From: a virus
Virus record (IMG/VR): IMGVR_UViG_3300024518_000024
Span: 1-12,620 of that record
Length of the DNA stretch: 12,620 nucleotides
Reading direction: 5' to 3' (one strand)
The notes below the pieces were generated by a model, which did not search any database, was not told the origin of the DNA, and saw only the letters and a program-made list of their open reading frames with translations. Positions 1 through 12,620 of this stretch are shown here, piece by piece; position 1 is the first letter of the stretch; the number at the start of each line of letters is the position of its first letter. Position numbers and translations under genes: made by a program.

Positions 1-122
1 ACTCCGAGATCGCAATCTGCAAGCTCAAATATGGGAAAAACTGGCACAAGGCCTACCGAGATCAAGTTATTTCAAACGTTAAAAAGAAACATTAGTTCTT
101 TCCCAAATACAGTTTATTTTAT
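1..122. repeat. Terminal direct repeat, copy A (identical to 12499-12620); marks a circular or terminally redundant 12,498-bp genome
   Basis: Base-by-base comparison: actccgagatcgcaatctgc...agtttattttat occurs at 1-122 and again at 12499-12620 (offset 12,498). Confidence 0.95.
3..95 (+). CDS. Duplicated 3' part of the 61-aa gene at 12408-12593 (partial, caused by the terminal repeat)
   Basis: In-frame translation SEIAICKLKYGKNWHKAYRDQVISNVKKKH* is identical to the C-terminus of ORF 12408-12593. It lies wholly inside the repeat. Confidence 0.6.
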   Translation, partial: SEIAICKLKYGKNWHKAYRDQVISNVKKKH

Positions 123-426
123 CAATCCTGCTTTTCTTACATATAGGGAAGTCTGCTCTTGTGAATTGCCCTGTTTTCGTAGCACAACCCTTACAGAATA
201 ACATTTTGTGATATTTGCATTGATAATAGACATCAAACATCTCATTCTTACACCAAGAGCAATCCAATCCCGTTGAAACTGGCTCAGTAGAATCGGCAAT
301 GCCTTGAGCAACCTTGTTTTCAGAAGCTCTTCTTTCAGCTCTTAGCTTCTGCCTTGCTATCTCTTGAATGTGAGGACTGTTATCACCTTGCCACCTTTCG
401 ACATCAACACCCATCATCTCACTCAT
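79..426 (-). CDS. Cys-rich putative zinc-binding protein (115 aa), function unknown
   Basis: ORF track. The C-terminal half has CSWC-x12-CKYH-x5-CKGC-x15-C spacing typical of zinc-ribbon or treble-clef folds. Its ATG overlaps the upstream RHH gene stop (ATGA, 423-426), indicating a two-gene operon. Confidence 0.6.
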   Translation of the reverse strand: MSEMMGVDVERWQGDNSPHIQEIARQKLRAERRASENKVAQGIADSTEPVSTGLDCSWCKNEMFDVYYQCKYHKMLFCKGCATKTGQFTRADFPICKKSRIDKINCIWERTNVSF

Positions 427-665
427 TTCTTCACCTTCTTAAAAATCTTAGTTTTAAGCTTGTCAATATCCTGTAAACTCTTCATCTGTATATCTGCTCT
501 ACCTATCTCAAACTGCAACTCATCATCAGACATAAGGGCTGTGGGATCATCAGTCTTAAGGAAATGATCCTTAAGAACTTGATTAACCAAAGAAGAGGCA
601 TTCGACTCCTTTCTCAAACGTTCTGCTAATTCCTGATCAATCGAGAATATCTTGTTAGTCTTCAT
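423..665 (-). CDS. Ribbon-helix-helix (CopG/Arc/MetJ-like) transcription regulator, 80 aa
   Basis: The N-terminus KIFSIDQELAERLRKESNASSLVNQVLKDHF fits the beta-strand/helix/turn/helix RHH pattern. It is the first gene of the - strand unit, divergent from the structural operon across the repeat-rich intergenic region. Confidence 0.7.
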   Translation of the reverse strand: MKTNKIFSIDQELAERLRKESNASSLVNQVLKDHFLKTDDPTALMSDDELQFEIGRADIQMKSLQDIDKLKTKIFKKVKK

Positions 666-686
666 GTTTGTTAGTAGTTAGTTAAG

Positions 687-694
687 TATTTAAA
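687..694 (-). promoter_or_regulatory. TATA-box-like octamer TTTAAATA (read on - strand) ending 22 nt before the ATG at 665
   Basis: Plus strand tatttaaa at 687-694 reads TTTAAATA on the - strand. There is no Shine-Dalgarno between it and the ATG (aactactaacaaacATG). Four + strand sites share this geometry. Confidence 0.6.
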
Positions 695-731
695 TATATA
701 GGTAATAGATAGTAGTAGTAGTTGTAGAAAG

Positions 732-752
732 TTCCAGTGGAAATAGGGGGGT
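732..752 (+). promoter_or_regulatory. Archaeal ORB-like element (dyad TTCCA-G-TGGAA, then A-TA and a G6 string); candidate Orc1/Cdc6 binding site
   Basis: The sequence is TTCCAGTGGAAATAGGGGGGT. It has a short dyad plus a downstream G-string and sits next to the AT-rich stretch 666-730. As I remember it, the archaeal ORB resembles TCCACAGGAAACGGAGGGGT. Confidence 0.45.
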
Positions 753-799
753 GTTCCTCTACTACTCTTAATGACAAACCTTAATAACTTTGTTCACTA

Positions 800-819
800 T
801 TGAATCGTACACGATTCAA
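800..819. promoter_or_regulatory. Perfect inverted repeat TTGAATCGT-ac-ACGATTCAA flanked by TTCACT direct repeats; candidate operator
   Basis: The 9-bp arms at 800-808 and 811-819 are exact reverse complements. TTCACT occurs at 793-798 and 824-829 on either side. Confidence 0.5.
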
Positions 820-867
820 AGCATTCACTCATTATTAATGGCATTATATCGTTGCGTAGAGGTTTTA

Positions 868-1108
868 CTGTCACTCAGTGACAATTGTAGTACCTATATT
901 CAGTGACAGTGACAATGTAGTACCTAACCGTAGAGAGGCTCTAGAGGCCATATTTGGGTACTTCAGCCCTTATGCATTTTTCATTGTTACTAAGTGACAG
1001 TTACAATATATATGTCACTACAATTATGTTACAGTGACACTATTGGTTCGCTTAACTGTAACTCAGTGACAGTTACAAATCTGTCACTGTCACGTAGTAA
1101 CAGTGACA
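868..1108. repeat. Iteron-like array: 11 copies of GTGACA/TGTCAC plus related GTTACA/TGTAAC motifs, arranged as nested direct and inverted repeats
   Basis: GTGACA starts at 878, 903, 909, 994, 1034, 1066 and 1103. TGTCAC starts at 869, 1013, 1082 and 1088. A 20/21-nt direct repeat CAGTGACAA(T)TGTAGTACCTA lies at 876-896 and 907-926. The 13-mer GTGACAGTTACAA lies at 994-1006 and 1066-1078. Inverted repeats are TGTCAC-tca-GTGACA (869-883) and TGTAACT-cagtgac-AGTTACA (1057-1077). Confidence 0.85.
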
Positions 1109-1119
1109 CCGACGTTGTA

Positions 1120-1151
1120 GGGGGGGGGATAATGGGGGGGGGTCATCCCCC
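1120..1151 (+). repeat. Twin homopolymer tracts G9-ATAAT-G9 followed by TCAT-C5 (potential G-quadruplex or GC hairpin)
   Basis: Counted directly: G at 1120-1128, ATAAT at 1129-1133, G at 1134-1142, TCAT at 1143-1146, C at 1147-1151. Confidence 0.9.
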
Positions 1152-1161
1152 AGACAAAAAT

Positions 1162-1169
1162 ATTATATA
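1162..1169 (+). promoter_or_regulatory. TATA-box-like octamer ATTATATA ending 22 nt before the terminase ATG (1191), preceded by A-rich BRE-like acaaaaa
   Basis: The sequence is cagacaaaaatATTATATAgttaacagtattaggcgaacaATG. There is no Shine-Dalgarno before 1191. Confidence 0.6.
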
Positions 1170-1190
1170 GTTAACAGTATTAGGCGAACA

Positions 1191-2513
1191 ATGGAGTATG
1201 ACAATTGGCAAAAATCTATACTTGAGGCAGAAGGAGACCTTTTAGCAAATACCGGCAGACAAGTGGGGAAAACGATGACTTTTAGCCACAAAATCGCGAT
1301 TTACCTGCTCAACAACCCGAAGCACCAAGTAATCGTGGTTTCCCTCACGGAAGACCAAGCTCAGCTGATAATCGTGATGATTTTGGACTATCTCCAGAAA
1401 AATCACAAAACACTAGTGCAAAAGGGCAAAAACAAGCCTACGAAGAGCAGAGTTTGGCTAAAAAACGGCGCGCACGTGATAAGCAGACCGGTCGGTAACA
1501 CAGGCGACGCAGTTCGTGGCTTTACCGGAAATGTTCTGTATATTGACGAAGCGAGCGGGATGCCCGAGATGATGTGGAAGGCCAGTATGCCAACCCTTAT
1601 GACAACCGGAGGGCAGATTTGGATGAGCTCCACGCCAAGGGGTAAGTTCATAGCAGGCAGCAGTGAAAAGAATTTCTTTTTCAAGTGTTGGGAGAATTTA
1701 GATGAGAAATGGACTGTTTTCAACATAGACAGCGAAAAGGTCGTCAAAGACAGAGAAATAACGAGTGACTGGACTGAAATAACAAGAGACAAAGCCCTCA
1801 AGTTCCTAGAAAACCAGAAATTGCTCCTCTCAGAGATGGAGTATAACCAAGAATACATGGCTAAATTCCTAGATGACATGAGGCAATGGTTCGAGGATGA
1901 GACAATAATATCAGCCATGACAGAACAAAGACCCAACAAAATAACCAAAGACAGCACATACTTCTTAGGAGTAGATGTGGCAAGGATGGGGGAAGACGAA
2001 AGTACCTTTCAAATTTTCGAGCTAAGAAAGGACAAGCTCTACCAAGTCGAAAGCCAAATCACAACCAAGACTACTCTACCCCAAACCTTCCATCATATAA
2101 AGGAACTGCACCTTCTTTATGACTTTGCAAGAATCTTCATTGATTCCGCCGGGATTGGGGTAGGGGTTTTTGATTGGCTGATGTACGATGATGACACAAA
2201 GCAAATAACCGAAGCAATTGACAACTCAAAGCAGGTCATGAGTGCAGATGGGCGGACAAGAAAGCTCCAAAAGACACTCAAATACAGTCATACTAAAATG
2301 CTGATGGAAACTGGGCGGTTGCACTTACTCGATGACCCAAAGATATTCCAGTCGTTCAAGTCCGTGCAGTACGCCTACACGAACGACAATCTGGGAACGA
2401 GGCATCTCAAGATATTTGGTAACTACACCCACATTGCCGAAGGAACCACTAACGCAGTTTGGGGTGAGAAAACGAAACACTTAAATCTTCAAGTGTACTC
2501 GATTAAAGTATGA
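1191..2513 (+). CDS. terL: Terminase large subunit (ATPase plus RNase-H-like nuclease), 440 aa
   Basis: Walker A is TGRQVGKT, Walker B is VLYIDEA and the coupling motif is MSSTPRG. Nuclease-domain acidic motifs are FLGVDVARMGEDEST and IFIDSAGIGVGVFDWL. This layout is typical of phage TerL. Confidence 0.9.
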   Translation: MEYDNWQKSILEAEGDLLANTGRQVGKTMTFSHKIAIYLLNNPKHQVIVVSLTEDQAQLIIVMILDYLQKNHKTLVQKGKNKPTKSRVWLKNGAHVISRPVGNTGDAVRGFTGNVLYIDEASGMPEMMWKASMPTLMTTGGQIWMSSTPRGKFIAGSSEKNFFFKCWENLDEKWTVFNIDSEKVVKDREITSDWTEITRDKALKFLENQKLLLSEMEYNQEYMAKFLDDMRQWFEDETIISAMTEQRPNKITKDSTYFLGVDVARMGEDESTFQIFELRKDKLYQVESQITTKTTLPQTFHHIKELHLLYDFARIFIDSAGIGVGVFDWLMYDDDTKQITEAIDNSKQVMSADGRTRKLQKTLKYSHTKMLMETGRLHLLDDPKIFQSFKSVQYAYTNDNLGTRHLKIFGNYTHIAEGTTNAVWGEKTKHLNLQVYSIKV

Positions 2514-2653
2514 CTGTGGAGAAACTGATTGAGGAGATGACTGCTATTAAGGTAGCATACCCAACTTTAGAGGTTTCTGAAGTTCTCCAAATATTTGAAA
2601 TACAAGCATTGAGGGAATTGACACTGATGTTGAGGAGGATTGCAAGTGGCTGA
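2510..2653 (+). CDS. Small hypothetical protein (47 aa), translationally coupled to terL
   Basis: My own translation is MTVEKLIEEMTAIKVAYPTLEVSEVLQIFEIQALRELTLMLRRIASG*. Its ATG overlaps the terL stop (ATGA at 2510-2513). It is below the ORF-track size cutoff. Confidence 0.35.
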   Translation: MTVEKLIEEMTAIKVAYPTLEVSEVLQIFEIQALRELTLMLRRIASG

Positions 2654-3017
2654 TTTAGGCACTCTAGCAACAACCGCCCAAGTCTTGCTAGCGATAGGGA
2701 ATGACGCAGGAACGGCACAAGTTTTAGAGGCCAATACTAATATTTGGATTCTAATGGCAGAAAGCGATATCGAAAAGCAATTTGGAGATAATGTGGGTAT
2801 TGTTGCAAACTACGCAAGCATAACCGCGGCAAACAAACAATGGTTAGCAATGGTGGCATCACATAGAGCTGCATTCTATGGAATTAACCAAGACCAAGGT
2901 AGTTGGCAATTATCAGTCAGTCAATCTAAATTAAATGTATGTGATTCTATATGGCAGGGTTTCATTTCAGACCTGAAGGACAATAAGGCCGATATAATTT
3001 CAGACTTAGGGCTATAA
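2640..3017 (+). CDS. Hypothetical virion protein (about 125 aa), possibly a head-tail adaptor
   Basis: ORF track (TTG start at 2640). GTG at 2646 sits 8 nt after GGAGG (2633-2637) and may be the real start. The protein is helical, about 14 kDa, and lies between terL and the portal. The adaptor role is a guess from size and position only. Confidence 0.55.
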   Translation: MQVADLGTLATTAQVLLAIGNDAGTAQVLEANTNIWILMAESDIEKQFGDNVGIVANYASITAANKQWLAMVASHRAAFYGINQDQGSWQLSVSQSKLNVCDSIWQGFISDLKDNKADIISDLGL

Positions 3018-3709
3018 TGGTATTACCCACACCCTTCACAACCTCTTCTCCAACAATAGCCACTTATGACTTTACTGAAATAGCGGAAGCCACGGGTTTC
3101 GTTACCTTCTATGGTAGTCAGTCAATAGATGACACAACCAAGACACACTTCCTTTCTTCTAATAAGACAAACTCCCAATTCATAGTAACCAAAGCAGCCC
3201 TATCCACAGAATCATTCTCCAAAGTTATTGACCTTGATTTTGATGTTCTCTTCAATCTTCCCCAAACTGTAAGGGGTACAGCTAGAGCTAACATAACAGT
3301 TGGCGGAGGTAACCTAGGTTCAGCAAATACAGTCGGTCAGGCATATGCGGTAATAAGGCTTAGGCATTGGGATGGTACAACAGAAACGGAGGTGGCGGAA
3401 GCACAAACCCATAAAATAGAATGGGCATCAAACGCCAACTATTCTGAAATAATGAACGTGGCTTTAGATGCAACTGCATCACAACATTATAAAAAAGGTG
3501 ACACCCTTAGAATGACAGTAGAGATATGGGGAAAGGTAGGCTCAGGTGCTAACGGTTCAGACTGTGGATTTGGACATGACCCAAACGAAAGAATAGACCC
3601 CGGACTTACTGAGGCAATACCCCCAGTTGCAGACACACAGGGGCAAGTAGTAACCGATGCAAACACAACTCAACTATCTTTCCTAATTCCCTTCAGATTA
3701 GAGGTATAA
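3017..3709 (+). CDS. Hypothetical structural protein, beta-rich, 230 aa
   Basis: ORF track. Its start overlaps the previous stop (TAATG). Composition is rich in T, S, G and N, as in beta-sandwich virion proteins. I recognise no family. Confidence 0.6.
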   Translation: MVLPTPFTTSSPTIATYDFTEIAEATGFVTFYGSQSIDDTTKTHFLSSNKTNSQFIVTKAALSTESFSKVIDLDFDVLFNLPQTVRGTARANITVGGGNLGSANTVGQAYAVIRLRHWDGTTETEVAEAQTHKIEWASNANYSEIMNVALDATASQHYKKGDTLRMTVEIWGKVGSGANGSDCGFGHDPNERIDPGLTEAIPPVADTQGQVVTDANTTQLSFLIPFRLEV

Positions 3710-4786
3710 ATGTCACAATTCGACCAAAACAAAGGCACAACCACAGACTTCTCGGCAAATGTAGAAGACTTCATAGTAACATCAAAGGCCTTAGACATAG
3801 CCAGCCCTGTGTCAGGGGAATACTATTGGTACTTTGACAAAGCAACCACAAACTTCGGCTACTACCTAGAGATTCCAGAGATATTCTCAGCAGCCAACTC
3901 CTTAGCAACATGGGCTTTCGGGAGGGGATGGATAACACCAGACCTTAGAATGCAATCACAACTAGAACACGTTAAGGGTTCAGGCATAGACCACTTTGAT
4001 AAAATAGTATTTAATCATGAGATTGTTAAGCTAATTGTAGGGGATGCATTTGCTGAAGTTAAGAAGAGCAACGGCCTTATTGTTAATATTATACCCATCT
4101 CACCGGAAAGAGTAAGGATAGTCTTTGGAAAATCTGGATTGATTAAGCGTTATGATGCATGGAATAATCAAAAGTGGGTTCCTATCAAAGTAGAGAATAT
4201 GTTACATAGTAGAAACAAACCAATCGGTGACAGCGTACATGGACAGAGCCAAGTCGAGCCAGCTAAGTTTATTATAGATGCAAGGAATGAGGCTTTGGCT
4301 GATGAGCGTGTTATCAAGCATAGAGATAAGGCCTTAGGTATTGTTTATTACAAAACGAACAACGCCGGAAAGATAACATATACAAACAGTCAGATAGAGA
4401 AGGCAGTGAACAAGGGGGAGATGCTCGGGCTGCCTGAAGACACAGCTAAGATAGACCCATATCCAAGTAGAAGCAGCGAAGACCGAACAGCATGGATAAG
4501 CTACCTTGAAAACTTCTTTTATCAAGTGTTCGGTGTACCGAGAAGTATTGCAACGAGTGACGGAACGAGTGAGGTGGGTGGTAAGATGGGTCACGTTATC
4601 TTTGAACCGGTATATGTTAAGGAGCAAAAGGACTTCGAGGCAGACCTATTGTTACAGCACTCAATCAAAGTACTATTCAATAGACCTCCTAGCTTAGGGG
4701 GATTGGCTGCTGAAACAGAGCAAAAGAATACCGGACAAACTAGCATTCAACCAAATGATGTGGAGGCATCTATAACAAGAGAATAA
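3710..4786 (+). CDS. Portal protein (HK97/PF04860-like pattern), 358 aa
   Basis: GDAFAEVKKSNGLIVNIIPISPERVRIVFGKSGLIKRYDAW...MLHSRN...GDSVHGQSQVEP and YLENFFYQVFGVPRSI match the conserved portal pattern as I recall it (G.ay...l.pl.p..v...g.i..Y...vlH...G.S and ia.afgvP..l). GAGGT lies 9 nt before the ATG. Confidence 0.75.
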   Translation: MSQFDQNKGTTTDFSANVEDFIVTSKALDIASPVSGEYYWYFDKATTNFGYYLEIPEIFSAANSLATWAFGRGWITPDLRMQSQLEHVKGSGIDHFDKIVFNHEIVKLIVGDAFAEVKKSNGLIVNIIPISPERVRIVFGKSGLIKRYDAWNNQKWVPIKVENMLHSRNKPIGDSVHGQSQVEPAKFIIDARNEALADERVIKHRDKALGIVYYKTNNAGKITYTNSQIEKAVNKGEMLGLPEDTAKIDPYPSRSSEDRTAWISYLENFFYQVFGVPRSIATSDGTSEVGGKMGHVIFEPVYVKEQKDFEADLLLQHSIKVLFNRPPSLGGLAAETEQKNTGQTSIQPNDVEASITRE

Positions 4787-5841
4787 TGCCACATACACGT
4801 GAACACTTTGCAACGGGTACAACAAACCCGAATGCACCAATCCCAATACTGCCCTCAGAAATAGAAGGGCAGGATTTCAGTGTCGATACTGGGAGAGAGG
4901 ATTGTGAAAGACTGGGAGGTACATGGGACGCAGCAGCAAGAATATGCAGGGGTGCTGAATCAAGACCCCCTTTCGACCCAGCACCATTCACACCGGAGAT
5001 AATTAGAGCAGGTAAGGGAGAGCGTAATGAAGGCAGAATAACAGGTACTACGTTACCAGATGGTTCTACATTCTTTGGCAACGAAGCTGAAATAAGGGAC
5101 TTAGTGGGGAAGAGAGTACAACAATTAACTGACCCCTCAGGCTCACAACCGGCTGGTACAACTAGGACTAATATTGAGATTGGAAGGGAGCAATCTTTAT
5201 TGCAATCTCAGGGTGCACAACTAGCGCAACAAGTCGGGCAGATAAGCCCATCAACTGGCATCACTCCAACAAACTTATCTCAAACTGATGCTATTACTGC
5301 TGGTGTCATGAATTCAATACCTAGAGCTTTGGGTTTAGCTGCGGGATATGCTGCAATAGGTGGTGCAGCAGGTTTAGCAACAGGCCCAGCAGCACCAGTT
5401 GTAAGTCCGGCCTTAGCAATAGCAGGTGCAACTGCAGGTCTTGTACAAGGAATAGGGGGGGGAATGATTAGCAATATGAGAGGACAGAGGACAGACAACA
5501 CCAACGCACAACAAAGGGTTCTTGATGAGGGTAAGCAAACCCTGAAGGATTGGAGTACCTTAGCGAAGGCCGACCCAGCAAACAGGGAGTTTTACTTATC
5601 ACAGTTTAACGTACAACTTCAATTAATACAAGATGCTCATGTTCAGATGCTAACCGATACAAACGCAGATGTGGCCAAGTTTGAAAGTGCGGTTCCCAAC
5701 CTAGCTGAGTTTAATTCGTTCTACTCAGCAGGGGGAGAGAGGGATGCCTTAGTTGAGGACATGAGAATATCCCTAACCACACCAGTGAGTATTGAGTATG
5801 CTATGGTAGAGCTGACAACTAGGAGAGCAAATGATATCTGA
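4786..5841 (+). CDS. Hypothetical protein with a central Gly/Ala-zipper membrane-like segment (351 aa); possible internal, ejection or membrane-active virion protein
   Basis: ORF track. Residues ALGLAAGYAAIGGAAGLATGPAAPVVSPALAIAGATAGLVQGIGGGMI form two hydrophobic glycine-zipper stretches. The C-terminal third is helical. The start overlaps the portal stop (TAATG). Confidence 0.6.
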   Translation: MPHTREHFATGTTNPNAPIPILPSEIEGQDFSVDTGREDCERLGGTWDAAARICRGAESRPPFDPAPFTPEIIRAGKGERNEGRITGTTLPDGSTFFGNEAEIRDLVGKRVQQLTDPSGSQPAGTTRTNIEIGREQSLLQSQGAQLAQQVGQISPSTGITPTNLSQTDAITAGVMNSIPRALGLAAGYAAIGGAAGLATGPAAPVVSPALAIAGATAGLVQGIGGGMISNMRGQRTDNTNAQQRVLDEGKQTLKDWSTLAKADPANREFYLSQFNVQLQLIQDAHVQMLTDTNADVAKFESAVPNLAEFNSFYSAGGERDALVEDMRISLTTPVSIEYAMVELTTRRANDI

Positions 5842-5968
5842 CCCCTTACTTAACTACGGCATGGCAGGCATATTCATAGCCTACTTAATCTATGACAGAC
5901 AGGTGCTAGTCAGAGGCCTTGTTAAATCTATTGACAACCTAACTGCTGCAATACAGAAACATTTATAA
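5831..5968 (+). CDS. Small single-pass membrane protein (45 aa)
   Basis: My own translation is MISDPLLNYGMAGIFIAYLIYDRQVLVRGLVKSIDNLTAAIQKHL*. AGGAG (5821-5825) lies 5 nt before the ATG. One hydrophobic helix is followed by an amphipathic tail. It overlaps the preceding gene end by 11 nt. Confidence 0.5.
   Translation: MISDPLLNYGMAGIFIAYLIYDRQVLVRGLVKSIDNLTAAIQKHL
5961..5968 (+). promoter_or_regulatory. TATA-box-like octamer ATTTATAA ending 22 nt before ATG 5990
   Basis: The sequence is gaaacATTTATAActagctgtgtcaggtaagagtATG, with the same spacing as the other four sites. Confidence 0.45.
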
Positions 5969-5989
5969 CTAGCTGTGTCAGGTAAGAGT

Positions 5990-6319
5990 ATGACTGAAAA
6001 TGAACAGACAGATAAGACTAACACCGTTGGAGATGACACTGATTCTAAACCTGCGGTTGCTGAGGCAGATAAACCCGTATCTATTGTGGAAGAAGCTCGT
6101 GCAATCAGAGATGAGATTAAGAAAGAAAGGGAGAAACTCGATGAGGCGAACAAGACCTCGCAGAAAATCCAAGCGGAAAATCTATTAGGTGGCTCAGCTG
6201 GTGGTCACGTTGAAGCAGTTAAGGTTTCCCCTGAAGTCCAGAAGGCAAAGGATGCAGCAACGTTTTTCAAAGGGACACAACTAGAAGAGGACATTAAGAA
6301 AGCCAATGAACAAAGCTGA
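5990..6319 (+). CDS. Acidic, helical scaffold-like protein (109 aa from ATG 5990; the ORF track opens at GTG 5975)
   Basis: The protein is highly charged with coiled-coil character (EEARAIRDEIKKEREKLDEANKTSQKIQAE) and lies upstream of the decoration and capsid genes. No prohead protease is present, which fits a separate scaffold. The function is assigned from position and composition. Confidence 0.5.
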   Translation: MTENEQTDKTNTVGDDTDSKPAVAEADKPVSIVEEARAIRDEIKKEREKLDEANKTSQKIQAENLLGGSAGGHVEAVKVSPEVQKAKDAATFFKGTQLEEDIKKANEQS

Positions 6320-6455
6320 ATGGAAAGACCAGAAAAAGATACTGGTTAAACACCTAGAAACAGCTGAAAAGAACAGAAAGACAGCTAACGACCAAATAGA
6401 TGAGCTAACTCTAACTATCTCAGCATACGATGAGAAAATCAAAACATTTAAATAA
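6306..6455 (+). CDS. Small coiled-coil hypothetical protein (49 aa)
   Basis: My own translation is MNKAEWKDQKKILVKHLETAEKNRKTANDQIDELTLTISAYDEKIKTFK*. It overlaps the scaffold-like gene end by 14 nt and fills an otherwise non-coding gap. Confidence 0.4.
   Translation: MNKAEWKDQKKILVKHLETAEKNRKTANDQIDELTLTISAYDEKIKTFK
6447..6454 (+). promoter_or_regulatory. Canonical TATA-box-like octamer TTTAAATA ending 22 nt before ATG 6476 (decoration and capsid genes)
   Basis: The sequence is atcaaaacaTTTAAATAatccgttcaccgaataactctATG. There is no Shine-Dalgarno and the upstream flank is A-rich. Confidence 0.55.
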
Positions 6456-6475
6456 TCCGTTCACCGAATAACTCT

Positions 6476-6874
6476 ATGGCTAACGAAGCGGTGTGCATTG
6501 AGACCCCTACAAGATTTGCAAGAAGGGTGATAGCAACAGGAACCGCGATACCTTTTGGTTCTATTATGCAGATTTCTAGTGACCCGGACACAGTGACTAT
6601 TTCTGATGGGGATAATGTTTTTGGTGGAATTAACTGGACACCTATACTGGCAACTGATACCTTTACTGAAATTACTGTGGCTTTGAATGGTACATGGGAT
6701 ATCAAGGATTCCGGAGCAGGTATGGCTATTGGAAACAAGTGCTCAGTTAATGGAGTTAATTTGGTTAAGACATTAATAGAGGCAGATACAGTTTTAGGTA
6801 AGGAAGTAGGTAAGGTTTTAGAGACAGCTAGCGCTAGTGAAGTTGTTAGAGTTAGAGTGGGGTCAGGTGAATAA
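6476..6874 (+). CDS. DUF2190-like head decoration or cement protein, 132 aa
   Basis: The pattern GTAIPFGSIMQIS...VFGGINW...ITVALNGTWDIK...GMAIGNKCSVNG...LGKVLETASASEVVRVRV matches the DUF2190 (PF09956) layout as I remember it. The gene lies immediately upstream of the capsid gene. Confidence 0.55.
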   Translation: MANEAVCIETPTRFARRVIATGTAIPFGSIMQISSDPDTVTISDGDNVFGGINWTPILATDTFTEITVALNGTWDIKDSGAGMAIGNKCSVNGVNLVKTLIEADTVLGKEVGKVLETASASEVVRVRVGSGE

Positions 6875-6960
6875 TGATAGATGAAGAAAAGAACACAACG
6901 GAAGAAGAAGGGAAGGATGAAAGCGATACTGAACAATCGACCGAAGGAGAGGAGGAATAA
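6874..6960 (+). CDS. Tiny, highly acidic ORF (28 aa) coupled at both ends (TAATG...TAATG); may only be a translated spacer
   Basis: My own translation is MIDEEKNTTEEEGKDESDTEQSTEGEEE*. The start overlaps the stop at 6872-6874 and the stop overlaps the capsid ATG at 6960. It contains the GGAGAGGAGG ribosome-binding site of the capsid gene. Confidence 0.2.
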   Translation: MIDEEKNTTEEEGKDESDTEQSTEGEEE

Positions 6961-7832
6961 TGGTAGCAGGTAGCGAGTTAGTAAACACAGACTTACGTAA
7001 GGAGTTCATAGATTCAGCAGTTAAGGCAGTTGTTAAGATTGAAGAGAAGTGGAAAGCCATGTGTACAATCGATAGTTCTTCAGCATGGACAGAATCATAT
7101 TTTAGAGAAACAAATGATGATTCCACTGATACAGGAACCGGGAGCCCAATGAAAGGATTAAGAGAATACGCGCCTTTCCCATTCATTGATGTAACGGAAA
7201 CAAAGGTTAGTTCCGTGATTGACAAGTATGCAGGGGAAAGCATTATTTCCTTGGAAGCCCAGTCAAACATCACAGTCCCTATGCTTCAAAGAAAGATTTA
7301 TAGGATTGGAAGAAAGATAATCTACCAAGTTGATGTAGCTATTGAAGCAAGTGTTAGCACAAACGCAGGTAACACCGTAGCAATCGGAGCAGGCAACGAG
7401 TGGGATTCTGCAACCATTGCTAACAGAGACCCGATTAAGGATGTTGCAGATGCGATTCAGACTTTAAGAGCTGACGGTATTGATGCCTTAGATGGCTCCG
7501 GCTTGTTAGTTGTTAATGGGACTGATTACACAAATATCATTACAAACACAAAGGTACTGAACCACCCAACATTCAAGGAAGTCTCCGCTATAAAGAACGG
7601 TAGAGTGAATATGCTGATGGGTCTTACTGTAGTTATAAGTGAAGCAGTCCAACCAGACCAAGCTTATGTTCTAGTTCAAAAGAAAGGTATGGTATGGAAA
7701 GCTGCCGAAGGAATGAAGGTTGTTACAACTGAAGAGCCGGGTAAGTGGACAACTATCCGGGCATGGGAGCGTGGTGTGTTTCAACTTCAGGCACCTAACG
7801 AGGTTTGTAAACTTACAAACACGAGGGCTTAG
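6960..7832 (+). CDS. Major capsid protein, HK97 fold (290 aa)
   Basis: It has the strongest Shine-Dalgarno in the genome (GAAGGAGAGGAGG). The motif layout NEWDSATIANRDPIKDVADAIQTLRADGIDALDGSGLLVVNGTDYTNI resembles the PF05065 pattern (W....dp..di..ai..l...g..p..ivmn..). Its position after the scaffold and decoration genes also fits. Confidence 0.7.
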   Translation: MVAGSELVNTDLRKEFIDSAVKAVVKIEEKWKAMCTIDSSSAWTESYFRETNDDSTDTGTGSPMKGLREYAPFPFIDVTETKVSSVIDKYAGESIISLEAQSNITVPMLQRKIYRIGRKIIYQVDVAIEASVSTNAGNTVAIGAGNEWDSATIANRDPIKDVADAIQTLRADGIDALDGSGLLVVNGTDYTNIITNTKVLNHPTFKEVSAIKNGRVNMLMGLTVVISEAVQPDQAYVLVQKKGMVWKAAEGMKVVTTEEPGKWTTIRAWERGVFQLQAPNEVCKLTNTRA

Positions 7833-7834
7833 CT

Positions 7835-8017
7835 ATGACACACGAGGGTAGGATGGCTCGCGGGAAGGAGAAAATTTCTAAAGGCATTAAAGATATTGAA
7901 ACTGAATACTATGAAGCTAACCAAGAAGTCGTACCTATTACAACTCCGGGTTATCCTAAGATGATTACAGCTATAGCAAAGAAGGAGAAGAAAAATGTCA
8001 AACCCAAGTCAGGATGA
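7835..8017 (+). CDS. Small basic hypothetical protein (60 aa)
   Basis: ORF track. GAGGG lies upstream of the ATG. No family recognised. Confidence 0.5.
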   Translation: MTHEGRMARGKEKISKGIKDIETEYYEANQEVVPITTPGYPKMITAIAKKEKKNVKPKSG

Positions 8018-8192
8018 GTTATACCCTAAGCATCTTGTAATTCCTCAGTACACAACTGCTGAGCGTAACGCTCTGATTGCAGATGTTGGCACCTTAATCT
8101 ATGATTCTACCCAAGATAAGTTAGCATTCTGTAAGGCTAAAGCTGCTGCTGCTGCTAGCTGGGAACTGATTACAAGCGTGGAGGAATCATAA
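7995..8192 (+). CDS. Small hypothetical protein (65 aa) with a fibre-like motif
   Basis: GAAGGAG lies 8 nt upstream of the ATG. LVIPQYTTAERNALIADVGTLIYDSTQDKLAFC...W resembles a motif I associate with N-terminal regions of some tail-fibre-like proteins, which is memory-based and weak. It contains an Ala run encoded by (GCT)5 at 8142-8156. Confidence 0.55.
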   Translation: MSNPSQDELYPKHLVIPQYTTAERNALIADVGTLIYDSTQDKLAFCKAKAAAAASWELITSVEES

Positions 8193-9023
8193 ATGGCCAC
8201 CACAGACATCTATCATATAACTGGTGGGCTTAAAGGCAGGAATGCAGTCATGTTTATTGATGGAGATACAGATGACTACGTACAAGTGAACGCTCACGCT
8301 GTGGCTAGAGTTGCGGCTAACGATACTGTTGGTACTTACAGCGCCTGGGTTAACATCATTAATATTGCTGATACGTTTACTGTCTTAGGAGCAGGTGATG
8401 CTAATGTTGTTGAATTTCTAGAGTTGAACATTGAAGCAGGTCTCTTGACTGCAAGGTGTACTGATGGGACAGTTGCCCAGTTTGTAACTCAAGCTGATGC
8501 TATTGGTTTTAAACCCCACAGATGGTATCACGTTGCAATGGTGCAGAATGCTAACGGGCAGGGAGTACACCTGTATATTGATGGAGAAAAGATAGCCTCA
8601 ACCAATGACACAACAACAGATGTGGATGAGTGGTATAATAATTTGGATGGTATTGATACGTTTAGAATTGGAGCAGCAAACAAAGCAGGGAATGATTCAG
8701 TGACTAATGAAATTACTGGTGGGATTAGTGACGTGAAGTATTGGAGTACAAACCTCACAGACACAGAGGTAAAGAATGATTTTCTTGGGGAAGCAGTGCA
8801 GGCCTCAGCATTACAGCTGCATATAGATTTTGTGGATGACTTGGTTGATGCTGGGCTGGGAGCAGATGATGGCACTATTGTTGGTGCAGTACTTCAATCA
8901 AATAATTATTGTGAGTTTACCTCAAGATTAAGAAATAGCACGGGCACGCCCGTTGTAGCCGATACCGTTCAATGTTTTGCCTCCGGGGAAACCGGGCACG
9001 CTGTGGTGATTCAGGCGGCCTAA
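8193..9023 (+). CDS. LamG / concanavalin-A-like lectin-fold protein (Laminin_G_3-like), 276 aa; probable carbohydrate-binding virion appendage
   Basis: TYSAWVNI...HRWYHVAMVQNANGQGVHLYIDGEKIAS...FRIGAANKAG...GGISDVKYWSTNLTDTEVKNDF is the classic LamG_3 (PF13385) signature. GGAGG lies upstream of the ATG. Confidence 0.75.
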   Translation: MATTDIYHITGGLKGRNAVMFIDGDTDDYVQVNAHAVARVAANDTVGTYSAWVNIINIADTFTVLGAGDANVVEFLELNIEAGLLTARCTDGTVAQFVTQADAIGFKPHRWYHVAMVQNANGQGVHLYIDGEKIASTNDTTTDVDEWYNNLDGIDTFRIGAANKAGNDSVTNEITGGISDVKYWSTNLTDTEVKNDFLGEAVQASALQLHIDFVDDLVDAGLGADDGTIVGAVLQSNNYCEFTSRLRNSTGTPVVADTVQCFASGETGHAVVIQAA

Positions 9024-9024
9024 C

Positions 9025-10917
9025 TTGGCACGCAACCCTTTGATACGACCGCGCAATATTTCTAAAGGCAAGCCAATGCCTACTCGTTCAGCTGGAATAT
9101 TAGATGACCATGCTCTGAGAAAGACTATTGCCACAAAGCAGGGCACTATAGAGCACGTACCCGCTAATGATTCTGATATTGCAAATAAGAAATACGTGGA
9201 TGGTGGGACTTACTTGACAGCTGGTGAGGGGATTGATATTACCGGCACAACTATTTCTGGAGAAGATTCAACAAGTTCTAATAAAGGAATCGTGACGATA
9301 ACTGGAGGCAATGGGATAGATGTTGAATACCCTGTTGATGGGCTGGCCGCAATCTCCGGAGAGCTGGCAACAGATACAAACACAGGCATTGCTAGATTTG
9401 ATGCTACTGGGTTCACAGTCACCGGAGGAAATGTTGTAATCAACGACATTTACGTCTTCAACTCAGGAGACACAATGACGGGACAATTAATTGTTCAGTC
9501 TGGCAACGGTAAAATCGTCACTTCTAATTCTTCTGGCTCTATTGATGTGCAGGATTCAAGTGGAAATGCTGGAAGCATAAGTTTTGGAAACACAGCAGAC
9601 ATTGGAATAAGCAATGATGGAGTGAGCGGTGGTTATGATTATGATGGAGCATTTATTCTAAAACAAAAAACCTCACAACCGGCAGAGAGAGGAGAGTTTA
9701 TCTTTATTGAACAAGGAGGAGATTGGAGATTTGCAATACCTAAGAGTGAGGCAGGAGTGGGGACATACAATCCGAGAAGCATGATTATTGCAGGACCCAG
9801 TACCAACATGACAACAAACTTTCAAGCTTCACATTGGGGATTCACTAACCTAGCTATGGACACAAGCGGAGATGGAGCAGACTTAGGGGTACAAAATGAT
9901 TGTGAAATCTTAGGGGATTTATTTGTTGGAGGGGCAACAGACTTATCTGGAAATATTGATATGAATGAAAACAATATTACAAATATAGGAGATCTAGATG
10001 GTGGTACTGCATTAAATCTTGTAGCAAGTCTATTTCTAACATTCAAATCTCCGGTAATTACATTGGGAGATGGTACTCTTTCGAGTGTTGGCTTATCATT
10101 CAACACAAGCGCAACAGATGGAACAATAACTTTTAATGGAACAAGTGGACAATACGATTTTGACAATCCAATAGACATGAACACGAATAAAATTGTTGGA
10201 GTTGTGGACCCAACCGCAGACCAAGAAGTCGCAACTAAAAAGTATGTTGATGACAACGACCATAGCTCTGTCACAATGTCTGGAACTCCGAACTACATAA
10301 CTCTTGTCGGGCAGGATATTGTGAGAGGCACGGTTGATATATCAGACGATACAAACCTCGCAGTCACAGCCCCAATTGTCTTAACAGGAGATACAGTTTC
10401 GGTAAGCACAACAACCTCAAGCGCTGTTGGAGTAATTGAGTTAGCAACGGAGGACGAAGTCCAAACCGGAACAGACACAACAAGAGCAGTAACCCCAGAC
10501 ACATTGCAATCTATTGCTCCCCCAATCGGAACGGTTATGGCATGGCTAAAATCCTATACTTCAACTCCCGCAACTCTACCGACTGGATGGGTGGAAGCAG
10601 ACGGCGCAACATTAAGCGATGCGGACTCTGTTTATGATGGACAGGTACTTCCCGATCTGAACGGAGGGATATTCTTGAGAGGAAACACAACTTCGGGAGC
10701 AACTGGAGGAAGCTCAACCCATAGATTAACAACGGCTGAAATGCCATCTCACATTCACACAGTTTCTACGAAAGTAGTGGCGGCATCTCCAGCAGGATTG
10801 GGTGGCGTTGCTTTCACAGGAGCCAACACAGTTAATACAAGTTCAACCGGTGGAGATACGGCCCACGAGAACAGACCTCCCTTCTATGATATTGTTTGGA
10901 TAATGAGAATAAAATGA
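9025..10917 (+). CDS. Tail fibre / receptor-binding protein with C-terminal phage tail-collar domain (630 aa from TTG 9025; alternative ATG at 9076)
   Basis: The C-terminus PIGTVMAWLKS...LPTGWVEADGATLS...VLPDLNGGIFLRG...GGSSTHRLTTAEMPSHIHT fits the tail-collar / MdpB-like family (PF07484). (A/V)(N/T)KKYVD occurs twice. VGVIELATEDEVQTGTDTTRAVTPDTL is a common fibre motif. Confidence 0.85.
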   Translation: MARNPLIRPRNISKGKPMPTRSAGILDDHALRKTIATKQGTIEHVPANDSDIANKKYVDGGTYLTAGEGIDITGTTISGEDSTSSNKGIVTITGGNGIDVEYPVDGLAAISGELATDTNTGIARFDATGFTVTGGNVVINDIYVFNSGDTMTGQLIVQSGNGKIVTSNSSGSIDVQDSSGNAGSISFGNTADIGISNDGVSGGYDYDGAFILKQKTSQPAERGEFIFIEQGGDWRFAIPKSEAGVGTYNPRSMIIAGPSTNMTTNFQASHWGFTNLAMDTSGDGADLGVQNDCEILGDLFVGGATDLSGNIDMNENNITNIGDLDGGTALNLVASLFLTFKSPVITLGDGTLSSVGLSFNTSATDGTITFNGTSGQYDFDNPIDMNTNKIVGVVDPTADQEVATKKYVDDNDHSSVTMSGTPNYITLVGQDIVRGTVDISDDTNLAVTAPIVLTGDTVSVSTTTSSAVGVIELATEDEVQTGTDTTRAVTPDTLQSIAPPIGTVMAWLKSYTSTPATLPTGWVEADGATLSDADSVYDGQVLPDLNGGIFLRGNTTSGATGGSSTHRLTTAEMPSHIHTVSTKVVAASPAGLGGVAFTGANTVNTSSTGGDTAHENRPPFYDIVWIMRIK

Positions 10918-11105
10918 AAAAGCAAAAACTAATAAAAAACATCGAATATATTTTAGATTGCTTGGAAGCTGATAAGAAAACTGCATCCCACAATGAGAAG
11001 GAAACCAACGCTATCGTCGATAGAATGATTGATTTTCAGATTCTATACCACCAATATGCAGGGCATTACTATCACCGAAAAGTATATAAAGACTTACTTA
11101 CTTAG
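10914..11105 (+). CDS. Small hypothetical protein (63 aa from ATG 10914; the ORF track opens at TTG 10896)
   Basis: The ATG overlaps the fibre stop (ATGA at 10914-10917). It is the last gene of the structural block. Confidence 0.5.
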   Translation: MKKQKLIKNIEYILDCLEADKKTASHNEKETNAIVDRMIDFQILYHQYAGHYYHRKVYKDLLT

Positions 11106-11111
11106 TAAGTC
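11083..11111 (+). promoter_or_regulatory. TATA-like octamer TATATAAA (11083-11090) followed directly by a perfect 8-bp-stem palindrome GACTTACT-tactt-AGTAAGTC (11091-11111) that abuts ATG 11112
   Basis: The octamer ends 22 nt before ATG 11112 and is preceded by ccgaaaa (BRE-like). I checked the palindrome pair by pair. It fills the whole TATA-to-start interval. Confidence 0.55.
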
Positions 11112-11279
11112 ATGACAATAAAAACATTAAACCTAAATTATTCCTTAACTAATTTTAATTCAATGAAGAAGAAGAAGGATATGTATGAGAAATTAAAGGG
11201 AAAGATTAGCTGGGAAGATTTTGTTTTCATGTGCACCGTCACCTATTTTCCTAAAGATGAGAAGGAGGTGAAAAAATGA
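11112..11279 (+). CDS. Small hypothetical protein (55 aa), first gene of the non-structural module
   Basis: My own translation is MTIKTLNLNYSLTNFNSMKKKKDMYEKLKGKISWEDFVFMCTVTYFPKDEKEVKK*. The stop overlaps the next ATG (ATGA at 11276-11279). The promoter-like box sits at the conserved distance. Confidence 0.45.
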   Translation: MTIKTLNLNYSLTNFNSMKKKKDMYEKLKGKISWEDFVFMCTVTYFPKDEKEVKK

Positions 11280-11575
11280 ATTGTAATAAATGCGGAATTG
11301 GACAGATGGCTTTGAAGTCAGGAAGGAACGGGCAGTTTATGGCCTGTGACCAGTATCCTCAATGCAAGAATACTGAGAACGTGGCACCGGGAACGCCAAT
11401 AATTCCACAAGCAACTGCACCAGCTAAGGAATACCACTTAAGCCCTGAAGAAGTAAATGCTAGAGCCTTGGAAGCTGCTATTAATTGCTCAGACATGGAG
11501 CAGAGACAGCAAACCAATCAATTACTAGACTTAGCTAATGTGTTTGTCAAGTACATAATGGGGAATGGGTACTAA
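11276..11575 (+). CDS. Topoisomerase-type C4 zinc-finger DNA-binding protein (99 aa)
   Basis: CNKCGIGQMALKSGRNGQFMACDQYPQCKNT matches the zf-C4_Topoisom pattern (C.CG..m......G.F.gC..yP.C). A strong Shine-Dalgarno AAGGAGGTG is present. Confidence 0.7.
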   Translation: MNCNKCGIGQMALKSGRNGQFMACDQYPQCKNTENVAPGTPIIPQATAPAKEYHLSPEEVNARALEAAINCSDMEQRQQTNQLLDLANVFVKYIMGNGY

Positions 11576-11916
11576 TGAAAGGACACAGCAGGAATAAGGT
11601 TGCTAAGAAGGAGCTGGAAGCACAGAAGGAATGGAGAAGGCAAGTATTGGAGAGAGATGGCCATAAGTGTCAGATTTGTGACCCTAGTGTTGTTGCTAAA
11701 AGGCTCAATGTCCATCATCTCATCCCGAGGGGAATTAAAGAATATCGGTGGGATGTGGACAATGGAATGACCTTGTGTGTCAGGCATCACACGCTTGGCA
11801 CGTTTTCAGCACATAAACATCCTTTTTGGTTTGTGAATTGGTTATGGAAAACCAAACCAAAGATATACTTTCAAATGGAAAGAAGGAACGCTCTAGCATA
11901 TTCGGAGGCTGGTTGA
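11575..11916 (+). CDS. HNH endonuclease (113 aa)
   Basis: GHKCQIC...LNVHHLIPR...DVDNGMTLCVRHH is a canonical HNH motif with flanking Cys pairs. The start overlaps the previous stop (TAATG). Confidence 0.85.
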   Translation: MKGHSRNKVAKKELEAQKEWRRQVLERDGHKCQICDPSVVAKRLNVHHLIPRGIKEYRWDVDNGMTLCVRHHTLGTFSAHKHPFWFVNWLWKTKPKIYFQMERRNALAYSEAG

Positions 11917-11965
11917 TGGTTCACCAGACGAACCCTGACATCCCGGAAAGACGGGAATTATAATC

Positions 11966-12202
11966 ATGGGAGAAACAGCAGAATTCGTAAAGGAGTTCAA
12001 TAAAGAAAAAAGTTTAAGCGAGAAGATTGAATGCGGAATAGTCCCTTGTGATGAAAAACTGCATAGGAAATCATTGAAAGCAACAGATGTACGAGAAGCG
12101 GTGCGGAGGTTGAAGCAAGCGACAGAGGAAGGACATGACGATTGGAATCTAAGTACAATGCTTAAAGAAATTGATGAGATATTCGGGGAAGCTCTCACAT
12201 GA
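11966..12202 (+). CDS. Hypothetical protein (78 aa), paralog A of a tandem pair
   Basis: It shares K(S/P)LSEK, EAVRRLK and LKE(I/L)(D/N)EIFGE blocks with the next ORF. Nucleotide identity is visible too (gtgcggaggttgaag in both). Confidence 0.6.
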   Translation: MGETAEFVKEFNKEKSLSEKIECGIVPCDEKLHRKSLKATDVREAVRRLKQATEEGHDDWNLSTMLKEIDEIFGEALT

Positions 12203-12417
12203 AACCACTGAGTGAGAAGGTCTTTGATGCAAAAGGGACGTGCTACACGGGTAAAGTCATTGAGGCCTGCAATGTTGCTGAGGCTGTGCGGAGGTTGAAG
12301 GAATTAACAAAGTCATGGATATTTGGAGAAGGCCCGTTTATGATAAACGAAGATAACATTGACGAGTACCTTAAGGAATTGAACGAGATATTCGGGGAGA
12401 TGAGAGAATGGGGATAA
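12199..12417 (+). CDS. Hypothetical protein (72 aa), paralog B of a tandem pair
   Basis: See paralog A. The ATG overlaps the paralog A stop (ATGA at 12199-12202). Confidence 0.6.
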   Translation: MKPLSEKVFDAKGTCYTGKVIEACNVAEAVRRLKELTKSWIFGEGPFMINEDNIDEYLKELNEIFGEMREWG

Positions 12418-12593
12418 CACCAAACAATCTCATGCTTGAGCGTGTGATCATGAAAAGAATGCAGGAACTATTAGATCAAGGTGAAGGGGAGCTCATAGAC
12501 TCCGAGATCGCAATCTGCAAGCTCAAATATGGGAAAAACTGGCACAAGGCCTACCGAGATCAAGTTATTTCAAACGTTAAAAAGAAACATTAG
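12408..12593 (+). CDS. Hypothetical protein (61 aa); its 3' end lies in the terminal repeat and converges on the - strand Zn-binding gene
   Basis: ORF track. It overlaps the preceding gene by 10 nt. On the circular map its last 17 nt overlap the 3' end of the - strand gene (coordinates 79-95). Confidence 0.5.
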   Translation: MGITPNNLMLERVIMKRMQELLDQGEGELIDSEIAICKLKYGKNWHKAYRDQVISNVKKKH

Positions 12594-12620
12594 TTCTTTC
12601 CCAAATACAGTTTATTTTAT
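12499..12620. repeat. Terminal direct repeat, copy B (identical to 1-122)
   Basis: See copy A. Confidence 0.95.

Follow-up and report, generated by a model that had tools for sequence, protein, structure and literature searches.

A chromosomal-type origin recognition box as the probable replication origin of a small archaeal tailed virus without detectable replication genes

Origin recognition boxes (ORBs) have been described in the chromosomal replication origins (oriC) of Sulfolobus, Pyrococcus, Haloferax and Nitrosopumilus, and are predicted in the Methanomassiliicoccales. Mobile archaeal elements that encode Orc1/Cdc6 or MCM, such as the MSTV1 provirus of Methanobrevibacter smithii, DHTV-4 and the Thermococcales viruses with MCM, depend on the same type of host pathway. 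Classical ORBs have been looked for, and none found, in AGV1 (preprint) and in Thermococcales viruses (PMC12934983, preprint), and authors who describe archaeal viruses without replication proteins usually write just that the virus 'possibly uses the host replisome'. Here we describe a canonical archaeal ORB in the viral DNA of IMG/VR record IMGVR_UViG_3300024518_000024 (positions 1 to 12,620; 'the window' denotes this whole stretch of 12,620 nucleotides). The box, GTTCCAGTGGAAATAGGGGGGT at positions 731-752, probably acts as a cis-only origin that recruits the Orc1/Cdc6 and MCM proteins of the host; binding, MCM loading, use as an origin and the identity of the host are what we infer from the sequence and its occurrence elsewhere. 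ORBs as such are already known; what appears to be new is that an ORB is the sole determinant of replication that can be recognised in a virus, and that it is conserved across a large family of tailed viruses of unusually small size. We rate this as novel because literature searches found no published description of ORBs in archaeal viruses that lack an initiator, and because the two studies of other archaeal viruses mentioned above found none.

A preliminary description of this DNA had read positions 732-752 as TTCCAGTGGAAATAGGGGGGT, a dyad followed by a G-string; the letters read exactly so, and the G that precedes them completes a 22-mer. The motif had been called ORB-like by comparison with an ORB of Aeropyrum. 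It is indeed of genuine ORB type, and the published consensus sequences (archaeal CTTCCAGTGGAAACGAAAGGGGT; euryarchaeal GTTCCAGTGGAAAC-AAA----GGGGG; Methanomassiliicoccales GTTCCAGTGGAAATGG-AGGGGTA) fit it better than that Aeropyrum sequence. The box has the TTCCAGTGGAAA dyad core of the archaeal and euryarchaeal consensus, and combines a TCCA-N-TGGA dyad core, AAAY, a purine linker and a G-string at the fixed spacing of the published consensus. Alignment to published ORBs, which had been proposed as a check, finds the box identical at 20 of 22 positions to M. luminyensis ORB2 and to M. alvus ORB1, both from Methanomassiliicoccales. A weight matrix was made from 10 published Methanomassiliicoccales ORBs only (PMC4153887) and is independent of the virus, since it was built from published boxes alone. 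The box reaches 32.3 bits out of 35.5 on it, compared with 11.4-33.9 for the published ORBs in a leave-one-out test, and the score of the box exceeds that of every one of 1000 first-order Markov simulations of the window (mean best score 10.7, maximum 24.6). The probability that the box arose by chance is negligible. No second ORB or mini-ORB was found in the window with up to three mismatches or with the full and core matrices; the 12-mer has one perfect match there, and 13 matches with up to three mismatches against 14.2 expected from shuffles. Overall, the identity of the box as an ORB-type element is well supported.

The box lies in a 525-bp intergenic region (666-1190), between the start of a leftward gene at 665 and that of the large terminase subunit (TerL) at 1191, and no open reading frame (ORF) of at least 40 amino acids covers 666-993. 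No structured RNA, tRNA or hairpin was found around it: Rfam gave no match, tRNAs are absent, and predicted folding has a z-score of 0.18. On either side of the box, at 702-729 and 754-775, trinucleotide repeats of the GTAGTAG type form an imperfect inverted repeat (AGTAGTTGTAGAA / TTCCTCTACTACT), which is predicted to fold no better than shuffled sequence (the same z-score), and similar TAG/TAC repeats precede the boxes of loci L024 and L067.

The same sequence occurs in cellular genomes, almost exclusively archaeal ones. The exact 20-mer TTCCAGTGGAAATAGGGGGG was scanned against one genome per species for 185,579 prokaryotic species (596 Gb) and found at 35 loci, where chance would give about one (an estimate from 596 Gb, both strands, divided by 4^20). 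All of these loci except one are archaeal: nine belong to Poseidoniales (Marine Group II, MGII), 12 to other Thermoplasmata, seven to DPANN archaea and six to others, and the sole non-archaeal locus is on a contig of 1.5 kb that was binned as Pirellulales. Archaea make up a small minority of genome collections of the GTDB type. A bacterial host, which the preliminary description had named as grounds for giving up its reading, is thereby answered as far as sequence allows, 34 of the 35 exact matches being archaeal. Virus genes are absent from all genome loci that carry the 20-mer, which are therefore cellular copies; eight of them (L037, L043, L049, L050, L057, L061, L063 and L065) are identical to the full 22-mer, and 14 of the 35 have another ORB with a high score, separate from the first and often inverted, no more than 1.6 kb away.

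Some of these cellular copies lie beside genes of replication initiation. In five Poseidoniales/Thalassarchaeaceae loci (L044, L046, L056, L059, L064) the box is found 50-80 bp upstream of mcm, and in two further loci (L051, L045) it is near cdc6; one of these, a cdc6 of Thermoplasmatales, sits between two inverted boxes and the other is 1.3 kb from its box. In some Marine Group II species the box upstream of mcm is a two-sided palindrome with G-strings at both sides, and its position suggests that this uncultured order has either an origin beside mcm or control of mcm expression by Orc1. The genes next to the box at L042 and L060 had been considered as cdc6 and were ruled out, their Pfam match being to isocitrate/isopropylmalate dehydrogenase; in two loci the box lies 36-55 bp upstream of such a dehydrogenase gene. 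In the DPANN loci L032, L038, L040, L052, L053 and L065 (Nanoarchaeota/Woesearchaeota), the box is accompanied by a conserved TTCCAACA(G/A), giving some 30 nucleotides common across metagenome-assembled genomes; this motif comes after the box except in L065, where it comes after a neighbouring ATA-centred box instead. Four of these DPANN boxes fall inside mechanically called ORFs of 250-290 amino acids, one of which has a C-terminal winged-helix match.

An archaeal host is well supported by these matches, and BRE/TATA-like elements precede start codons in the window by 26-29 bp. The best-fitting candidates are marine Thermoplasmatota such as Poseidoniales, on circumstantial grounds, namely the short 22-nucleotide spacing of the box, the Thermoplasmatota share of the exact 20-mer matches (21 of 35), the marine distribution of the viruses, a GC content of 42% for the window genome, and a tetranucleotide usage that is closest to Thalassarchaeaceae/MGII loci (r = 0.61-0.63, similar to the correlation with related viruses). 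DPANN archaea may be the other candidate, some of their loci holding ATA-centred boxes like those of several viral relatives. Binned relatives gave no host: the copy at NCBI that was examined is part of a bulk metagenome assembly, and among the 20-mer loci none carries viral genes.

Immediately upstream of the box, the strongly AT-rich stretch noted in the preliminary description is borne out by composition and by duplex stability. Windows that cover 670-719 are 80-83% AT, compared with 58% genome-wide, and nearest-neighbour energies rank 671-710 and 671-730 as the least stable 40- and 60-bp duplexes of the whole genome (rank 1 of about 12,560). As in an oriC, where an AT-rich unwinding element adjoins the boxes, the 671-730 segment abuts the box. 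Among box-bearing viral loci, the least stable 60-mer lies 3-89 bp from the box in seven of 15, the window counted. The same stretch contains a TATA-like element, TTTAAATATATA, 31 bp from the box and about 29 bp from the ATG of the leftward gene; we take TTTAWATA some 25-30 bp before a leaderless start to be the archaeal TATA consensus, and the assignment as a promoter is predicted from this consensus and the position. Of 20 related loci, 15 have the 8-mer TTTAAATA upstream of TerL.

The window comprises one complete genome of 12,498 bp, since its first 122 bases recur at its end (12499-12620), so that the molecule is circular or terminally redundant. Searches of the Pfam and PHROG type detected no initiator, helicase, primase, polymerase, clamp or Rep family protein in the window, and no replication protein was found among 49 accessory ORFs of relatives; the preliminary description, which had seen neither initiator nor polymerase, was correct on this point. 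A Cdc6/AAA+ initiator gene, the cognate orc1/cdc6 that would stand beside an origin, is likewise missing from the window and its relatives, and this absence is the very point of a model in which the initiator is borrowed. The virus, which has no detectable replication genes and carries a host-type box, probably gets the host Orc1/Cdc6 to start copying its DNA.

TerL served as the anchor of the comparative analysis. It has 793 homologues in public data, largely from marine samples, on contigs that reach 12-13 kb at most; 25 viral contigs with TerL 59-83% identical were fetched, and extra copies were reached through protein look-ups. In genome size the family falls far below the archaeal tailed viruses described so far and ranks with the smallest Caudoviricetes, and literature searches found no published description of it. 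The best match to TerL in a cultured virus is Halogranum tailed virus 1, which is haloarchaeal, and the major capsid protein has no match among deposited phage and archaeal virus genomes. Assemblies of the family are circular or concatemeric. The 23.2-kb JGI 3300002518 contig (L027) holds an 11.7-kb relative twice in tandem, either a concatemer or an assembly wrap-around, and its lineage (L027-L030) has TerL divided between two called ORFs, of 122 and 317 amino acids.

Boxes of ORB type recur in the same intergenic region in 16 of 25 loci, down to a TerL identity of 59%, typical forms being GTTCCAGTGGAAATAGAGGTTA, CTTCCACTGGAAATGGAGGTGT, TTTCCACAGGAAATAGGGGTCA and GTTCCATAGGAAATGAAGGTCT. The sequence upstream of TerL, 26.9 kb in total, has 38 copies of the pattern TCC-N3-GGAAA[CT], 12 of them from three near-identical contigs, versus one copy in 165 kb elsewhere, which is an enrichment of about 230-fold. 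In a box-anchored alignment TCCA..GGAAAT...GG is invariant and the flanks are unalignable; the box is thus the only conserved island in its surroundings, which argues for selection. Four relatives (L005, L007, L011, L015) carry four or five boxes in both orientations, and some relatives pack them into 100-300 bp, as cellular origins do; several ORBs flanking an unwinding element, a configuration that the window lacks, are therefore found in parts of the family. The early gene beside the box varies among box-bearing relatives (RHH-like, that is ribbon-helix-helix-like, or another small protein), the orientation of the box relative to TerL flips, and its distance to genes changes. That the box is kept throughout fits a host factor better than one encoded by a neighbouring gene. 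In IMG/VR, the canonical pattern TTCCAGTGGAAATNNNGGGGT was found in only three of 2.9 million contigs, two of which are small and have a distant terminase (28-32% identical) with the box upstream of TerL; the exact 20-mer has no match in IMG/VR viral contigs.

These observations can be assembled into a simple scheme. After entry, the viral genome would circularise, and host Orc1/Cdc6 would bind the box, the winged helix contacting the dyad (732-742) and the AAA+ initiator-specific motif contacting the G-string (746-751). The bound protein would then recruit the host MCM helicase onto the adjacent unstable segment at 671-730, from which the host replisome would copy the viral genome. The palindrome, the iterons and the G-run block of the intergenic region (Table 1) would do other jobs, such as early and late transcription control and packaging by TerL together with the HNH endonuclease. 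What the sequences themselves show is the identity of the box with ORBs, its archaeal specificity, the absence of detectable replication genes, the adjacency of the stability minimum and the recurrence in relatives. It is quite possible, though we put it forward tentatively, that the scheme extends to the family as a whole: a globally distributed family of tailed archaeal viruses of about 12 kb would have shed every replication gene and would load host Orc1/Cdc6 and MCM through chromosomal-type ORBs, the first case of viral origin mimicry in Archaea. Variants of the box (AGT, ACT, ATA and ACA centres) might then track host ORB variants and serve as a host marker.

It is important to point out what weighs against origin use. 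The window has a single full box, while an archaeal origin is by general definition an unwinding element flanked by several ORBs (PMC5333045), and H. hispanica oriC1 fails when either of its two ORBs is deleted, or when ORBs or G-strings are mutated (PMC3936714). In 28 of the 35 cellular loci neither mcm nor cdc6 is present in the 8 kb fetched and housekeeping genes are adjacent; since most cellular copies are thus away from these genes, an ORB sequence by itself is no proof of an origin, and its role may be a regulatory one. The AT-rich stretch may also act as a promoter, and part of its AT richness would be explained by the TATA-like element within it. A consistent polarity of the AT flank relative to the box was considered and dropped, being weak in cells (26 of 35) and inconsistent across viral relatives (13 of 20). 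GC skew, which has its minimum at 500-700, was also set aside and gives no help, because the skew follows gene orientation. Many boxes of relatives have weak G-strings, for example AGAGGTTA, and about one-third of relatives have no box; among the latter are five with at least 1.28 kb of upstream sequence, including two complete genomes. Four of those five, together with L019, are scattered over the TerL tree, and the box is therefore not indispensable to the family. Finally, HNH genes were seen only in box-bearing loci, which makes a packaging-related role conceivable. The reading of an ORB-mimicking origin given in the preliminary description thus stands with respect to ORB type, confinement to archaea, adjacency to an unwinding element and, in addition, recurrence in the family; it is weakened by the single box and the box-less relatives, and its link to the iterons fell away.

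The box may bind host Orc1/Cdc6 for ends other than initiation, by coupling the divergent early promoter to the cell-cycle state of the host or by titrating Orc1/Cdc6 off the chromosome. Titration by ORB clusters is documented for the ORB-rich region of H. hispanica oriC2 (PMC3936714). The identical cellular boxes are promoter-proximal in the five Poseidoniales species with mcm and in the two loci with a dehydrogenase gene, most of the other copies have neither mcm nor cdc6 in the 8 kb fetched, and the viral box itself is close to an early TATA-like element. The virus, however, still needs some origin and encodes no replication protein, and the duplex next to its box is the least stable in the genome. 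The varying orientation and gene distance among relatives are unlike a fixed promoter operator, and multi-box clusters in both orientations resemble origins, so that a role apart from initiation appears unlikely.

We consider it less likely still that the box is an operator or recognition site of a virus-encoded protein, be it an early protein of RHH-like or winged-helix-like type, the Zn-ribbon protein or the HNH/terminase packaging machinery, with a likeness to ORBs that is convergent. The dyad TTCCA-G-TGGAA forms a perfect palindrome, as is typical for dimeric regulators, divergent promoters stand on either side of the box, packaging sites are often located upstream of TerL, where the box lies, and HNH homologues are found in eight of 16 box-bearing loci versus none of six scored box-less ones. 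Convergence would nevertheless hardly explain the identity at 22 of 22 positions, G-string and spacing included, with eight genome loci, nor a score in the range of genuine ORBs. No core DNA-binding protein was found common to all box-bearing genomes, and the neighbouring early gene differs among them. The HNH association may not be meaningful because the contigs are incomplete and the genomes related, and the element most tightly tied to TerL is the G-run block, which box-less relatives have too. In L026 an HNH gene lies directly upstream of TerL. That the box is a functionless scrap of host origin captured recently, or a chance match, is very improbable: the single copy in the window, the lack of the exact 20-mer in IMG/VR viral contigs and the relatives that do without a box would fit such a scrap, and against it stand the negligible chance probability, the recurrence in the same region in 16 of 25 loci and in two contigs with terminases at 28-32% identity, the roughly 230-fold enrichment upstream of TerL, and the conservation of the box alone in its surroundings, which indicates selection. 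Binding of host Orc1/Cdc6 for initiation is thus the reading that we prefer.

The remaining elements of the intergenic region are listed in Table 1 together with the genes around it.

Table 1. Coordinates of the box and of other features of the window (strand '.', not oriented).
Feature	Position	Strand	Basis and remarks
Canonical archaeal ORB, GTTCCAGTGGAAATAGGGGGGT	731-752	+	Dyad TTCCA-G-TGGAA at 732-742; G6 string at 746-751; sole full copy in genome
AT-rich, least stable duplex segment; candidate DNA unwinding element	671-730	.	Abuts the dyad side of the ORB
TATA-like TTTAAATATATA, likely archaeal-type early promoter	689-700	-	About 29 bp upstream of the leftward ATG at 665; predicted from position
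Palindrome TTGAATCGT-AC-ACGATTCAA	800-819	.	Sequence; function putative
GTGACA/GTTACA-based iteron array, direct and inverted	863-1120	.	Repeat families D1-D4 and I1-I9; virus-specific, not ORB-like
Conserved block CCGACGTT-GTA-G9-ATAAT-G9-TCAT-C5	1109-1151	+	Alignment A3, 19 loci; just upstream of late promoter
BRE/TATA-like putative late promoter AGACAAAAATATTATATAG	1152-1170	+	About 26 bp upstream of TerL start; consensus AGAAA-TTTTTATAAA in alignment A3
Large terminase subunit (TerL)	1191-2513	+	Pfam Terminase_6N 2.8e-16; PHROG 2 5.7e-36; 793 homologues; heads rightward structural operon
Leftward early gene, 80 amino acids, possibly ribbon-helix-helix DNA-binding protein	423-665	-	ORF; clusters with L005:2293-2676
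Second leftward gene, 115 amino acids, Cys-rich	79-426	-	ORF; comes after the 423-665 gene
HNH endonuclease	11575-11916	+	Pfam and PHROG HNH

The palindrome at 800-819 is a probable operator for a virus-encoded regulator; relatives L004, L005, L013, L024, L026 and L028 have a different palindrome, GTTATTCGGTATACCGAATAAC, in the equivalent region, and these too look like operators for small virus-encoded regulators. Upstream of TerL in box-less relatives (regions of L004, L019, L020, L022 and L028), ACGTATACGT palindromes are repeated, and L020 has both these palindromes and a box; they may represent an alternative origin or a regulatory module that is exchanged within the family. The preliminary description had further proposed that the CAGTG core of the box recurs in the CAGTGACA units of the iteron array. 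This is unsupported: the iteron units score at most 7 bits on the 14-nucleotide core matrix of the ORB, versus 22.5 for the box, and relatives carry other iterons, only L006 having ACTGTCACTCAGTGACAAT in common with the window. The iterons can thus be ruled out as degenerate ORBs, and no Rep or initiator gene lies beside them, as the window has no detectable Rep, primase or helicase family.

Of all non-coding elements in the family, the G-run block is the best conserved; in the window its G9 runs lie at 1120-1128 and 1134-1142. Its family form, CCGACGTT-N-G8/9-AWAA-G8/9-TCAT-C4/5, lies 40-80 bp upstream of TerL (L002, L004, L006, L012, L013, L019-L022, L024, L028); 14-16 of 20 loci contain G-run 8-mers, where shuffles give at most 11, and G runs of at least seven are nearly always on the TerL strand. 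Since box-less relatives also carry it, the block has a function separate from that of the ORB, most likely as a packaging (cos/pac) or late-transcription element; it is a better cos/pac candidate than the box, and could form a G-quadruplex.

Besides TerL, the window encodes as structural proteins a portal at 3710-4786, a major capsid protein of the HK97 type at 6960-7832, a protein with a LamG domain, and a tail fibre. Among the small genes are those for a Zn-ribbon protein and the HNH endonuclease and a few of no known function. The protein encoded at 423-665 has no Pfam or PHROG match and is possibly an RHH DNA-binding protein, a fold judged by eye; its positional counterpart in L021 matches CcdA/RHH. 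Two small genes at 11966-12202 and 12199-12417 form a paralogous pair (41% identity, E = 9e-9) with EAVRRLK and EIFGE motifs common to both.

A perfect ORB in a complete, gene-poor viral genome provides a concrete and testable mechanism in place of a general appeal to the host, namely that host Orc1/Cdc6 would be recruited directly by the very sequence it recognises. The virus also offers a minimal system in which to ask whether one ORB suffices to load MCM. With a few hundred base pairs, the box region would be a natural replicon of very small size, which could be used as a vector origin in archaea that are uncultured or otherwise hard to handle, and the box is a possible sequence marker for predicting the archaeal hosts of metagenomic viruses.

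The logic proposed here has counterparts in the other domains of life. The origins of P1 (oriR), pSC101 and F contain DnaA boxes, and such replicons nearly always also encode a Rep protein and carry iterons. They share with the viral box the principle of a mobile replicon that displays the chromosomal binding site of the host initiator; the domain of life and the initiator family differ (DnaA versus Orc1/Cdc6). The oriP of Epstein-Barr virus and the terminal repeats of Kaposi's sarcoma-associated herpesvirus recruit cellular ORC and MCM via the viral adaptors EBNA1 and LANA. These latent origins are alike in that a viral episome is licensed by host ORC/MCM without a viral helicase, whereas here the DNA itself would be the recognition sequence of the initiator. 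Within Archaea, MSTV1, DHTV-4 and the Thermococcales MCM viruses bring an initiator or helicase gene and the virus in the window brings only a cis site. The long G runs near its ORB (G9...G9...C5, 1120-1151) are reminiscent of the inverted repeat, rich in G, that enhances H. hispanica oriC1 (PMC3936714), but the viral block stands close to the TerL promoter, 370 bp away from the box, and is kept in box-less relatives. The closest likeness is to cellular oriC, in the TTCCAGTGGAAA dyad core, the A/G linker and the G-string, in the short 22-nucleotide spacing shared with Methanomassiliicoccales ORBs, in the easily melted AT-rich segment that adjoins the box, and in the identical 22-mers of cellular genomes; the virus differs from these chromosomal origins in having one box rather than several flanking ones, no adjacent orc1/cdc6, and a viral replicon of 12.5 kb in place of a chromosome.

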